This document shows, in pieces, positions 12,703 to 16,507 of a stretch of DNA of 63,616 nt. Origin of the DNA: a virus (Duplodnaviria > Heunggongvirae > Uroviricota > Caudoviricetes); the IMG/VR virus record IMGVR_UViG_2851982317_000002; one strand, written 5' to 3'. The position numbers were made by a program, and so were the translations under genes. The notes beneath the pieces were generated by a model. It worked only from the letters and a program-made list of their open reading frames with translations. It did not search any database and was not told the DNA's origin. Within the stretch, counting starts at the first letter, position 1. Every line of letters begins with the position of its first letter.

Positions 12703-13074
12703 ATGCGTGATATTCAAATGGTTCTTGAACGTTGGGGGGCATGGGCGGCTAATAATCATGAGGATGTGACCTGGTCGTCCATTGCTGCCGGTTTTAAGGG
12801 ATTACTTCCTTCAAAAGTAAAATCCCGCCCGCAATGTTGTGACGATGACGCGATGATCATTTGCGGGTGCATGGCCCGTCTGAAAAAGAACAACAGCGAT
12901 TTGCACGATTTATTAGTAGATTATTATGTAGGTGGTATGACGTTTATGGCGCTTGCCCGTAAACATGGGCGTTCTGATTGCTGGGTTGGGCGCTTATTGC
13001 AAAAGGCAGAAGGCATCATTGAAGGTATGTTGATAATGTTAGAAATAGAATTGGAAATGGACTCAAATATCTAG
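12703..13074 (+). CDS. late-gene antiterminator Q (Q82/QuuD-like family)
   Basis: ATG at 12703 six nt after GGAGG; N-terminus [24 protein letters not shown] as I recall for QuuD-type Q proteins; positioned just before the late/lysis region. Confidence 0.75.
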
Positions 13075-13246
13075 AAAGATATTTTATGAGTATCTGGATT
13101 TTTAATTTGTATTGTTAGCATGAAATTAAGGAGGGTGGACTGTTTGTGCTTTATATTAATGTTTTTGTGGGGATTTAATAACCACTGATTTATTTGAGGG
13201 TGGCGCTAATGTACAAGGTTTTTAGTAATTAGCGCCTGCTGGTTTG

Positions 13247-14698
13247 TTATTTTATTTTGCTTACTATATTTGTAATAAGTGGGTCAAATTTCTCATCAAT
13301 AATTTCAATATATTTTTTTATTGCTAAAGTTCTAATTACTTCCTCCTCACATTCTGCTTCTTTAGCAATTGCTTGAGTGTAATTGTGATGATCACTAATC
13401 CCTTCCTTTTTTATTAACCAATCAAAATCAATATGATACTCCTTGTAGAGGAATTTTTTTACTTCCTCATGTTGAAATACTTCTACTTCTGGTGGCCTAT
13501 TGCCAGGGAAAGAAAATAAATCATCTTTAATGTTTTCTCCAACATCTGCATCTCTTACGGCAATAACATTAAGGCCTGCTTTCTTGAATACCTCGACTGC
13601 TTGTCGGACTGCATCTTTATCTCCAATATCAGTGATTTGAATGGATTTAAGAATGTCTCTCCGCTTTGCTCTAATTACTTCACTAAGTAAAACTTTTGCA
13701 AACTGGTCTTCTACGCAAATATGCAGCCCTTTAAACTGCCCATCAGACAGTATTGATCTCACATGAGTTGTTGAAATTCCATCTTTGATATAGACACCAG
13801 TCTGATCTCTAATAAGTAATTTTCGTGCATCAGGAGGTAAAGCATTTAATATCACACTTGAGTGTGTTGATAATATTATTTGATGTTTTCTACGTTGACA
13901 TACTTCCATTAAATATTTTGCAAATTCATACTGTGCGCTTTCATGAAGAGATGTTTCTGGTTCTTCTAGTACGAAAAGACTTTGCTCTGGAGCTGTTTCA
14001 AGCATATCAACCGTATAAAGAACTCTTCCTTCGCCAAACCCCATGTTATTTTCAGAATAAGAATACCCAAGTCTTTCAACAATACCAATTTCTGAACGAC
14101 GTGCTCTATGAGAAATTCCTTGGAATGCGATATCATCATATGGATGACCTATTATTTTTGCCATCTTCAATATTACTGAATGGTCGACGCTTCTTCTCTC
14201 TGTTAAATCAAAGTCTTTACCGCCATAAACACTTATATCTCTACGTTCTACTTTTGGAATATAGACAGTAAAACCAATGTAAAAACAGTGTCTTTCTGGT
14301 TGTCTTTTATATCCAGACCAAGAAGACTTTATGCGAGTGACAGTCACATCTTGTGTTTTCGTTGAATCATTTGTTTCATATTTATAAATGACACTGGCGT
14401 CATTATCGAAAGGGGCTGGATCGGCTTTAGATACAGGAAAAAAATCTTTAATATATAATCTCTTATATTCACGGGCTGTAACTGGTTTTTTATATGCGCA
14501 TATTGCTAACTGCCCAAGAGTGCTTTTCCCAGCGCCGTTTAGCCCTGATATTGCAGTTACCGGAAAATTTATATTTAATGTTAGTTTTTTTATTCCTCGA
14601 AATCCATTTATCTCTAGACTTTTAATTACGGAGCCAAAGTTTGAGTATCTATTTTTATCAAAGTACATGCATTTTAGTATATTTTTTATGTCTGACAT
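13247..14698 (-). CDS. OLD-family ABC-type ATPase with C-terminal TOPRIM-like region (candidate defence nuclease)
   Basis: 483 aa; Walker A GLNGAGKST, Walker B/D-loop LFVLEEPETSLH, H-loop ILSTHS; C-terminal CVED and VRDADVG motifs compatible with TOPRIM; AT-rich, opposite strand to flanking phage genes. Confidence 0.7.
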   Translation of the reverse strand: MSDIKNILKCMYFDKNRYSNFGSVIKSLEINGFRGIKKLTLNINFPVTAISGLNGAGKSTLGQLAICAYKKPVTAREYKRLYIKDFFPVSKADPAPFDNDASVIYKYETNDSTKTQDVTVTRIKSSWSGYKRQPERHCFYIGFTVYIPKVERRDISVYGGKDFDLTERRSVDHSVILKMAKIIGHPYDDIAFQGISHRARRSEIGIVERLGYSYSENNMGFGEGRVLYTVDMLETAPEQSLFVLEEPETSLHESAQYEFAKYLMEVCQRRKHQIILSTHSSVILNALPPDARKLLIRDQTGVYIKDGISTTHVRSILSDGQFKGLHICVEDQFAKVLLSEVIRAKRRDILKSIQITDIGDKDAVRQAVEVFKKAGLNVIAVRDADVGENIKDDLFSFPGNRPPEVEVFQHEEVKKFLYKEYHIDFDWLIKKEGISDHHNYTQAIAKEAECEEEVIRTLAIKKYIEIIDEKFDPLITNIVSKIK

Positions 14699-14963
14699 TT
14701 TTTATCTTTCCTGATATGAATGAGAGTTATCTTTAGAAAAACAATAAATTTATAACATTTAGAGATGTATTCATCAATGATTAGGTAAATATCGTGCATT
14801 TGTTGTTTTAAAATCAACCAAGAATGATTTTTATAATTATGTCAATTGCCTTATTATCAATATGGTAATGTTTTCTCAATCTAATTATTGGGGGGGATAT
14901 ATTATTTACAATCGTAAATAATCAGATATGCTCTCAAGAGTGGTTACTTCGCCACACAACTTA

Positions 14964-14989
14964 AACCCGCCGTCGAGCGGGTTTTTTTG
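14964..14989 (+). terminator. rho-independent terminator (possible tR'-like late terminator)
   Basis: ACCCGC-(CGTCGA)-GCGGGT hairpin followed by TTTTTTT. Confidence 0.6.
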
Positions 14990-15110
14990 TACCTGTAAAC
15001 CTGGTGCAGTACGGTAAACACGCTGGTGGTCGTGAATACTGACTTTTTATCTTGCTGGCTTTTTAGACAAGAGTTATTGGTATGTCATGTTAACCAGAAG
15101 GAAAAAAGAC

Positions 15111-15305
15111 ATGCTAAAACAGCAAGATATGACAGAAACGGCGAAAGTTGTTTTTAATGAATTAAGCATCGAACCGGCAACAGTCGGGGAGATTGCACAA
15201 AACACATATCTTTCACGCGAACGCTGTCAGTTAATACTGACCCAGTTGGTTATGGCGGGGCTGGCAGATTACCAGTTCGGCTGTTACAGACGCCTTCAGC
15301 TATGA
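15111..15305 (+). CDS. hypothetical small protein, possible winged-helix DNA-binding
   Basis: 64-aa ORF from the ATG at 15111 (track start 15087); no strong motif. Confidence 0.4.
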   Translation: MLKQQDMTETAKVVFNELSIEPATVGEIAQNTYLSRERCQLILTQLVMAGLADYQFGCYRRLQL

Positions 15306-15454
15306 AGGACTTTTAATTTGTGAAAATGGGCGGCTGGTGGGTGTTGGTAGCACCTGCCAGCCATTCGCTCATGCTTACTGGTCACAAGCGAACCACGGCC
15401 CACTGCTTTAGCGCAAAAGCAGAGTGAGCCTACCAGAGTTACGCTTACTGATCC

Positions 15455-16507
15455 ATGAAAAATACTGTAAAAATAAACAGTGTTGATTTAATCAACGCTG
15501 ATTGCCTGCATTTTATTCAGTCCCTGCCTGATGATTCCATTGACCTGATTGTTACCGATCCGCCTTACTTCAAGGTGAAACCCAACGGTTGGGACAATCA
15601 GTGGAAAGGGGACGAAGATTACCTTAAGTGGCTGGACCACTGTCTGGCCCAGTTCTGGCGGGTGTTGAAACCTGCCGGAAGCCTTTACCTGTTCTGTGGG
15701 CATCGCCTGGCATCTGATATTGAGATCATGATGCGTGAACGTTTCAACGTGCTTAACCATATCATCTGGGCGAAGCCGTCCGGACGTTGGAATGGGTGTA
15801 ATAAAGAAAGTCTGCGCGCATATTTTCCTGCCACAGAGCGCGTTCTGTTTGCTGAACATTACCAGGGGCCATATCGCGGCAAAAGTGACGGCTATGCGGC
15901 AAAAGAAAGGGAACTCAAACAGCACATAATGGCACCGCTGATATCGTATTTCAGGGATGCTCGTGCCGAACTGGGTATAACGGCAAAACAAATTGCCGAA
16001 GCCACAGGTAAGAAAAATATGGTTTCCCACTGGTTTGGTGCCAGTCAGTGGCAGTTGCCGAATGAGGCTGACTATCGGAAGTTACAGGCACTGTTTTCCC
16101 GTATAGCGGCAGAGAAGTTTCAGGAACAACAACTGGAACAACCACACCACCAGCTGGTGGCATCTTATGATTCACTGAATCGCAAATATTCTGAATTGCT
16201 GGATGAGTTTAAATCTCTCCGGCGCTATTTCTCCGTATCAGTCTCCGTGCCTTATACCGATGTCTGGATGCATAAACCCGTTCAGTTCTACCCGGGTAAA
16301 CATCCGTGTGAGAAACCGGCGGATATGCTCAGGCAAATAATCAATGCCAGTAGTCGACCTGGTGATCTGGTTGCTGATTTTTTTATGGGATCCGGTTCCA
16401 CAATAAAAGCAGCAATGGCGCTGGGGCGTCGGGCCTTAGGTGTTGAGCTTGAGTCAGAGCGGTTTAACCAGACAGTGAAAGAGATAAACGAGCTGGTGGG
16501 GAAATAA
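15455..16507 (+). CDS. DNA methyltransferase (DPPY-motif amino-methyltransferase, N6A/N4C class)
   Basis: 350 aa; catalytic DPPY (LIVTDPPYF) near the N-terminus and AdoMet-binding FxGxG (DFFMGSGST) near the C-terminus. Confidence 0.8.

Follow-up and report, generated by a model that had tools for sequence, protein, structure and literature searches.

The fusion of an ATP-binding cassette (ABC) ATPase to a TOPRIM domain in a single, stand-alone gene is an architecture that already has a name and experimental support. HEC-04 (Hma-embedded candidate 04), validated in 2024 from a chromosomal, Hma-embedded copy, consists of one gene coding for such a fusion; it reduces plaquing of several coliphages, BASEL phages included, and is toxic on induction, and defence is lost when K62 is mutated or when E319, D375, and D377 are mutated together (Payne et al, bioRxiv 10.1101/2024.01.29.577857). 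T4 and T5 are among the phages blocked (PMC12111858). IbfA, reported as a HEC-04 homologue and encoded on the IncI1 plasmids R64 and pUA1135, leads to abortive infection by a P22-like phage; in cells carrying it, phage DNA replication is unaffected, early transcripts are increased, late transcripts are decreased, and viability is lost without lysis (PMC12111858). The gene described here lies on the minus strand of a 63,616-nucleotide DNA from a virus of the Caudoviricetes (IMG/VR record IMGVR_UViG_2851982317_000002; this whole stretch is referred to as the window) and its product is most probably an anti-phage nuclease that acts by itself and belongs to the HEC-04/IbfA type.

The open reading frame (ORF; 13247..14698, stop codon included) starts with ATG, specifies 483 residues, and carries a Shine-Dalgarno-like AGGAAAG (minus strand, 14706-14712) 7 nt 5′ of the start codon. 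RefSeq/PGAP assigns identical coordinates to an “ATP-dependent nuclease” (WP_032083250.1) on the chromosome of E. coli ATCC 43886, a human-faeces isolate that is 100% identical to the window across the 2.9 kb compared; a literature search for this accession returned no paper mentioning it. Because 736 homologues were found at E <= 1e-5 (the best 120 listed being 57–100% identical), the ORF is not there by chance. An earlier reading by a model, made from the letters and the translated ORFs alone (hereafter the sequence-only reading), had described an AT-rich gene antisense to its phage neighbours. Coordinates, strand, and composition agree with this description: the G+C content is 0.341 for the ORF and 0.329 for the cassette surrounding it (13062-14904), compared with 0.483 in the remainder of the window. 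All annotated neighbours, beginning with the early-right operon and extending to the genes for terminase and portal, are on the plus strand.

Family assignment of the 483-residue protein

Among defence families, HEC-04 was the best match of the protein (PADLOC model PDLC04149; E 3.9e-47, 159 bits; judged by E value), with residues 5-410 aligned to model positions 7-403 of 494. The second-best PADLOC match was the ATPase-Toprim effector of type I-B retrons (E 2.5e-22, residues 238-470), and the PADLOC Old model was not within the top 25 matches. PHROG 3940 also matched (E 1.5e-77). When compared directly with HEC-04 from E. coli MOD1-EC5853 (WP_044502283.1, of which the first 399 residues were taken from Table S2 of bioRxiv 10.1101/2024.01.29.577857), the window protein was 26% identical over residues 1-402 (E 5e-30), and K62, E319, D375, and D377 of HEC-04, that is, the residues required for defence, were opposite K58, E330, D383, and D385. 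An [LF]PG..PE motif after the DxD motif is common to HEC-04 and the family of the window protein. A 521-aa plasmid ATPase (WP_000741348.1) was 23% identical over residues 25-392 (E 2e-19), its FVED and DGD being opposite CVED and DAD of the window protein; its score against the HEC-04 profile (109 bits) was lower than that of the window protein. WP_000741348.1 may be IbfA itself but is termed here a HEC-04-type plasmid ATPase. On the basis of its sequence, the window protein is placed in the HEC-04 lineage, as a divergent member, among the broader set of OLD-like ATPase-TOPRIM proteins, and does not represent a new kind of system.

The N-terminal half had been read as an ABC ATPase, which was borne out by profile and structure searches. 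AAA_15 (70.8 bits), AAA_21 (54.1 bits), and AAA_23 (34.1 bits) all scored above their Pfam cut-offs, as did DUF2813 on residues 26-132 (31.9 bits vs a cut-off of 21), a family covering YbjD-like N-termini. The best sequence match in the PDB was TsOLD (6P74; E 5.8e-7 with the single sequence, 1.9e-11 with the family profile), limited to the ATPase motifs, that is, the P-loop (residues 25-61) and the segment from Walker B to the H-loop (residues 242-302). For the predicted full-length model, Foldseek listed TsOLD (E 1.1e-11), GajA, the retron and Septu PtuA proteins, and Eco8 as best matches. Every motif quoted in the sequence-only reading (Walker A, Walker B with D-loop, STHS, CVED, and VRDADVG) was located in the protein (Table 1), and a signature-like MGFGEGR is present in the ATPase as well. 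To assess conservation, 96 relatives of 465-545 aa (from the best 150) were aligned with the window protein; in these 97 representatives, which are 25–52% identical, K58, E246, E330, D331, D383, and E404 are invariant, H279 is conserved in 96 and D385 in 84, and P398, P403, and H438 are nearly invariant.

For the C-terminal half, the sequence signal was too weak for an assignment (a profile of the domain retrieved nothing meaningful from the PDB, only de novo TIM barrels at E ∼0.05), which is why fold comparison was relied on. Pfam and NCBIfam by themselves yielded, besides generic AAA and ABC matches, no more than an OLD-like_TOPRIM match below its cut-off. Residues 317-483 were modeled separately, with an alignment of 31 relatives 20–70% identical to the window domain, and the resulting model was of high confidence (pLDDT, the predicted score of the local distance difference test, 95.6; predicted template modeling score 0.90). 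It adopts a TOPRIM fold, as had been proposed, so that the lack of such a fold, named in the sequence-only reading as a refutation, does not apply: comparison scores were 9.9 for TsOLD, 9.3 for PARIS AriB (147 of the 167 residues aligned), 9.2 for the C-terminal region of the Burkholderia OLD, 7.9 for PH0156, and 7.8 for GajA, vs 6 or less for generic Rossmann-like folds. Foldseek likewise found the C-terminal regions of XccOLD and BpOLD, together with AriB, at a probability of 0.99-1.0. The predicted model thus makes it highly probable that the C-terminus is a metal-dependent nuclease domain of the OLD TOPRIM type followed by a helical bundle. On the sequence level, the C-terminal domain by itself matched the HEC-04 profile (E 9.9e-7), as did the domains of 29 of 31 diverse family members; the retron type I-B OLD effector matched the window domain at E 6.6e-5 and 12 of the 31. 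The AriAB and Old profiles each matched only one member (PADLOC Old at E 0.005), and so did Pfam DUF4435 (E 0.013).

Two segments of the ATPase, residues 122-159 (∼14222-14335) and 209-225 (∼14024-14074), are those modeled worst by AlphaFold (pLDDT <50) yet belong to the most conserved parts of the subfamily; SWSGYKRQPERHCYYVGFTVYIPKVERRD and YSYSENNMGFGEGR, which they contain, are nearly invariant in the alignment of close relatives. Rather than disordered loops, these segments probably represent a structured insert and the signature region of the ABC ATPase, which would make them candidates for the sensor or dimer surface.

Predicted activity and competing explanations

The likely function of the protein, considering all analyses together, is ATP-gated, nuclease-mediated exclusion of other phages. 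Transcription of the gene would start in the region upstream of it and run antisense to the phage genes, so that it should be expressible in the lysogen. The ATPase module would serve as sensor and switch: upon infection with a heterologous phage, it would license the TOPRIM site, with two metals, to cut nucleic acid, which would halt development of the phage while sacrificing the infected cell. Both the lysogen population and the prophage would benefit from such abortive infection or superinfection exclusion. An abortive outcome would be like the one reported for IbfA and is consistent with the toxicity of induced HEC-04.

Several observations weigh against this assignment. Identity to the HEC-04 protein that was assayed is only 26%, and phage-resistance data come from relatives 23–26% identical; furthermore, the last ∼75 residues are outside the match to the HEC-04 profile. 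In the search for OLD-type profiles, which the sequence-only reading had suggested, the ATPase models passed and HEC-04 emerged as the best defence family, but Pfam OLD-like_TOPRIM (PF20469) reached only 13.0-14.3 bits vs a cut-off of 23.2, so that the TOPRIM assignment draws on the predicted structure and on motif conservation. Regarding the sensor, the full-length model has a pLDDT of 70, and the ATPase inserts 53-94 and 122-159, the most conserved ones, are poorly modeled (pLDDT <50). Regarding expression, sigma-70-like matches on the minus strand (e.g., 14911->14884 and 14860->14833) number 13, which is within the range of shuffled sequences (9.9 ± 3.6), and E. coli may silence foreign DNA that is AT-rich. 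Lastly, defence is not the role of every OLD-type protein; Cran1, an archaeal member of the OLD family, acts in the cell cycle (PMC12796447).

There is about an even chance that the TOPRIM site acts on DNA, by nicking or cleavage. The slight lean toward DNA is due to the recurrent sequence relatives of the domain being only HEC-04 and the Eco8-type effector; the OLD protein of Retron-Eco8 was reported to cut dsDNA, and Vc OLD to nick DNA. The fold of the domain matches AriB equally well, and it is possible, although less probable, that the protein belongs to the same family and serves in defence, but that its TOPRIM domain is an RNase cutting host tRNA, which would result in translation arrest instead of DNA damage. 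P2 Old, the founding solo OLD protein, amputates anticodon arms of tRNA (tRNA-Thr(UGU)) in a reaction depending on ATP hydrolysis (PMC12445682), AriB of PARIS is a tRNA nuclease cutting tRNA-Lys (PMC12409363, PMC11464382), and the phenotype conferred by IbfA (PMC12111858) is compatible with a translation block, which is the interpretation given here and not the conclusion of its authors. Conversely, the profiles of the tRNA-cutting proteins, and DUF4435, each recognize one of the 31 C-terminal domains, whereas HEC-04 and the retron type I-B OLD are the recurrent matches, and DNA is the reported target of the Eco8 and Vc proteins; the predictions made here do not separate DNA from RNA substrates. 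Should tRNA be the target, a tentative notion, the conserved 483-aa subfamily would be a one-protein analogue of PARIS and P2 Old, in which the ATPase senses a phage product and the TOPRIM domain cuts host tRNA. It would then be the most compact of the known immune nucleases that are ATP-gated and target tRNA, and the pattern seen with IbfA (early transcripts up, late ones down, replication intact) would have to be reread as translation arrest.

The protein is unlikely to be simply a Class 1 OLD nuclease (P2 Old/TsOLD/Vc OLD/YbjD type) instead of a member of a separate HEC-04 lineage. Class 1 is defined, by genetic context, as a solo gene for ATPase and TOPRIM (PMC10568477), which is a fitting description of the window gene; among PDB entries, TsOLD ranks first by sequence as well as by fold, DUF2813 passes its cut-off, and the PGAP name would also suit such an enzyme. 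However, Class 1 proteins have a length of 500-600 aa (PMC12392090), whereas the window protein with 483 aa, already called unusually short for an OLD-like protein in the sequence-only reading, and its close subfamily (27 sequences, 482-496 aa) are below this range. Walker A and Walker B are spaced by ∼188 residues vs ∼265 in Vc OLD (K48, D313); the distance being ∼77 residues shorter, the ATPase insert is probably much smaller than that of Vc OLD. The match to TsOLD comprises two stretches of ATPase motifs only, PF20469 stays below its cut-off, and PADLOC Old is neither among the top 25 matches of the protein nor found in more than one of the 31 C-termini. Because of its length, its Walker spacing, and the failure of the OLD profiles, the protein was filed with HEC-04 and not with Class 1 OLD. 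That it has no role in defence at all, being a repair or chromosome ABC ATPase (RecF, SbcC, SMC) or a nuclease for replication, recombination, or takeover by the prophage itself, is highly unlikely: apart from the precedent of Cran1, weak N-terminal matches to SMC_N, RecF, Rad50, and MukB and the host-beneficial roles raised for distant IbfA homologues (PMC12111858) speak for it, but the SMC/RecF-type matches span the P-loop only (25-61 or 25-123) and are below cut-offs, and the gene is accessory, AT-rich and foreign in every host, surrounded by freely changing neighbours, antisense to phage operons in a slot otherwise carrying lysogenic-conversion cargo such as porin, and dispensable for the phage life cycle, as sibling phages lack it.

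The interval between Q and the probable pR′, and the distribution of the gene

The gene had been placed between Q and the late operon, in a position used for morons. The placement holds and can be refined to the interval between Q and the putative late promoter pR′ (Table 1), probably upstream of the late transcript. In blastn comparisons, sibling prophages are homologous up to 13034-13061, within the 3′-terminal part of Q, and again from 14905 onward. Other prophages carry different cargo in the same interval between Q and the methylase gene: PhiR40_1 has an antisense 148-aa ORF, and many prophages of E. coli have a porin gene (nmpC/ompC-like), likewise antisense, which corroborates the notion of a moron slot. 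At least part of the 2.9-kb query was matched in 4543 of 5426 E. coli genomes.

Table 1. Features of the nuclease locus and its surroundings (positions refer to the window; residues to the 483-aa protein).
Feature	Position	Strand	Residues	Remarks
Antiterminator Q, QuuD-like	12703..13074	+		PGAP “antiterminator Q family protein”; convergent with the nuclease gene
Variable cargo cassette, Q-to-pR′ slot	13062..14904			Boundaries by blastn vs PhiR40_1 and E. coli LD39-1
Hairpin	13202..13236	-		Between Q and the nuclease gene; 10 nt past the nuclease stop codon
TOPRIM core and helical bundle (predicted)	13250..13750	-	317-483	E404 and H438 also conserved
VRDADVG		-	381-387	D383-A-D385 = 13544-13552
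CVED		-	328-331	E330-D331 = 13706-13711
ABC ATPase region	13799..14629	-	∼24-300	Pfam matches above threshold
H-loop STHS		-	277-280	H279
Walker B and D-loop, LFVLEEPETSLH	13943-13978	-	241-252	E245, E246
Walker A GLNGAGKST	14519-14545	-	52-60	K58 = 14525-14527
AT-rich upstream region, presumed own promoter	14699..14904	-		G+C content ∼0.29
Probable pR′, TTTACA-N16-TATGCT	14905-14932	+		Promoter scan
Probable tR′, intrinsic terminator	Stem 14963-14984 and T-run, to 14992	+		-13.8 kcal/mol, z -2.5

The promoter segment is common to prophages with this type of Q, whereas the sequence in common with phage Ayreon, which has a different Q, starts only at the terminator. From this pattern, we infer a pR′ and Q-binding site specific for Q, followed by a tR′ that is common. 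Placed between Q and pR′, the cargo would accordingly be convergent with the former and divergent from the latter, and the nuclease cassette is probably not crossed by the late transcript. The -35 hexamer of the putative pR′ is overlapped by an inverted repeat (ATTATTTAC/GTAAATAAT, 14901-14922; perfect over 9 bp, arms 4 nt apart). PhiR40_1 retains the core of this repeat, TTTAC-N4-GTAAA, and LD39-1 has a change in one arm; the repeat could be a Q-binding element or an operator. The back-to-back orientation of pR′ and the repeat over its -35 hexamer could also couple expression of the nuclease to the lysogenic or lytic state, although this is the weaker reading. Downstream of the putative tR′ (15087-16507), a 72-aa ORF (TrmB-family regulator in related records) and a gene for a 350-aa DNA methyltransferase precede those for holin, lysozyme, and Rz; a second methyltransferase, annotated as N-6-adenine-specific, is encoded in the early-right operon (locus L001, 2898-3551). 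A methylase made late could bear on the discrimination of self from non-self.

At the other end of the cassette, the sequence-only reading had noted a palindrome with perfect 9-bp arms. The arms (13202-13210 and 13228-13236, 17-nt spacer) are indeed perfect, and the stem extends to 12 pairs, but the boundaries given, 13201-13237, were off by one base at each end. As minus-strand RNA, the hairpin is unusually stable (-15.6 kcal/mol, z -5.6; none of 200 shuffles as stable), as opposed to the plus strand (z -1.0). It was rejected as a classical intrinsic terminator of the nuclease gene, since, despite the significant stem, no U-run follows on the minus strand; a T-rich tract follows on the plus strand. 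For want of that U-run, we only infer that the hairpin is probably a 3′-end or terminator element of the nuclease gene. Other candidate elements within the cassette were discarded. The only small ORFs, of 21-43 aa, were unsupported, and Rfam returned nothing above threshold in 12900-15500 (no msr/msd), with one sub-threshold match to Trp_leader (14883-14990; 22.6 bits vs a gathering threshold of 41, E 0.16). The latter coincides with the putative pR′-tR′ leader and terminator; the terminator hairpin almost certainly gave rise to it by chance. No promoter or terminator seems to travel with the gene: the 200 nt upstream and downstream of the copies from E. coli, Klebsiella, and a Logan phage contig do not align, only the ORF being common to them.

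When 1.84 billion representative proteins were searched exhaustively, relatives numbered 3072 at E <= 1e-3, of which 128 reached E <= 1e-30. The close subfamily is 57–78% identical to the window protein, its named hosts including Klebsiella, Vibrio, Pseudomonas, Aeromonas, Shewanella, Methylomonas, and Acidithiobacillus. In E. coli, the gene was found in 11 of the 5426 complete genomes (0.2%), at least 99.7% identical and always in the same slot; in IMG/VR, 14 viral contigs of three sequence types carry it. Among the isolated phage genomes of INPHARED, neither the full locus nor a close homologue was found, but two weak matches in Burkholderia phages. In every host, the G+C content of the gene is 7-19 points below that of the flanking DNA; the gene is regarded as an AT-rich moron that was acquired horizontally.

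The notion that the gene is solo, without a GajB-like helicase or DUF4435 neighbour, also held up. In the window, no partner gene (helicase, DUF4435, reverse transcriptase, or other) is located beside the ORF. Seven contexts, with proteins 63–100% identical, were compared: the Q slot of the E. coli prophage, a Klebsiella prophage, a phage contig where the gene is beside terminase and portal genes, Pseudomonas, beside a ThsB-TIR-like gene, an Aeromonas integrase island, and two chromosomal insertions, one in Pseudomonas oleovorans, beside nrdAB, and one in Shewanella. These have no homologous neighbour in common, and thus, as far as genomic evidence goes, the gene should work alone. Small genes upstream of the homologues (167 aa in Aeromonas, 168 aa with DUF3916 in Pseudomonas, 140 aa in Shewanella) were considered as conserved partners, as were the downstream genes, but all were unrelated in an all-against-all blastp.

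Some of the contexts are peculiar in themselves. In Klebsiella (GCA_916161295.1; L007, 3584-9408), a 75% identical homologue is flanked by genes for proteins of 637 aa (upstream) and 555 aa (downstream), each of which resembles a prohead protease-capsid fusion and matches CLP_protease and Phage_capsid_4. At three further loci (L004-L006), the same protease-capsid-like gene is upstream, followed by chromosomal genes. These arrangements point to prophages that are in tandem or truncated, the nuclease gene being located at the junction. In the Aeromonas integrase island (L014, 6468-7274), a gene for a 268-aa DUF3427/HNH-like protein, not present in the other contexts examined, begins 13 bp past the stop codon of the nuclease homologue; it could function in defence on its own or be a partner confined to this lineage. 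In Pseudomonas (L008, 7703-8522), a 65% identical homologue adjoins a gene for a 131-aa protein with a weak match to ThsB_TIR, which has a 146-aa partner on the opposite strand; this locus looks like a small defence island.

Thus, E. coli ATCC 43886 and ten other E. coli genomes contain a probable phage-resistance determinant, which would affect phage typing, phage therapy, and the competition between prophages. The reach of the HEC-04 family, so far chromosomal (Hma) and plasmid-borne (IbfA), would also include morons of lambdoid and other prophages and solo insertions across Gammaproteobacteria. The compactness of the protein, its conservation, and the confident model of its C-terminus make it suited to address whether OLD-type TOPRIM domains act on DNA or tRNA, and what their ATPases sense. 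Because the interval between Q and pR′ swaps its cargo, it is also a place to seek further accessory genes.

Comparison with described ATPase-TOPRIM systems

HEC-04 is the closest described system, being the best profile match of the window protein and having the Walker A lysine as well as the TOPRIM glutamate and DxD residues at equivalent positions. It differs in that the window gene occupies a slot in a lambdoid prophage, instead of being Hma-embedded, and that its product belongs to a tight subfamily of its own (57–78% identity). IbfA is alike in being a single ATPase-TOPRIM protein encoded on a mobile element; it, like WP_000741348.1, is plasmid-borne and of 518-521 aa, whereas the window protein is prophage-borne and shorter.

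The Class 1 OLD proteins (P2 Old, TsOLD of Thermus scotoductus [6P74], Vc OLD of Vibrio cholerae, YbjD of E. coli) are also products of solo genes combining ATPase and TOPRIM, and they require the ATPase and the acidic TOPRIM residues in vivo. P2 Old resembles the window protein further in being prophage-borne, and it excludes another phage. This class provides the best matches among solved structures for both halves of the protein, yet its members are larger (500-600 aa), with a large dimerisation insert in the ATPase, and the window protein fails the PF20469 and PADLOC Old models that describe OLD. Substrates vary even within this class, from tRNA (P2 Old) to DNA that is nicked (Vc OLD).

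The other systems rely on partners. The effector of type I-B retrons (Retron-Eco8, Class 3 OLD) is the only other one whose profile matches many C-terminal regions of the family, but Eco8 OLD acts only within a complex of reverse transcriptase, msDNA, and OLD, whereas no reverse transcriptase ORF was found in the neighbourhood of the window gene, nor a corresponding noncoding RNA. In PARIS (Class 4), the functions are split between AriA and AriB, the latter with a TOPRIM of the DUF4435 type, and such a partner is missing near the window gene. GajA of Gabija (Class 2) contains an extra helical insert and needs the helicase GajB; no UvrD-like helicase of the GajB type adjoins the ORF, be it in the window or in the contexts of its homologues. 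For both PARIS and Gabija, sequence matches to the window protein are confined to the C-lobe of the ATPase.

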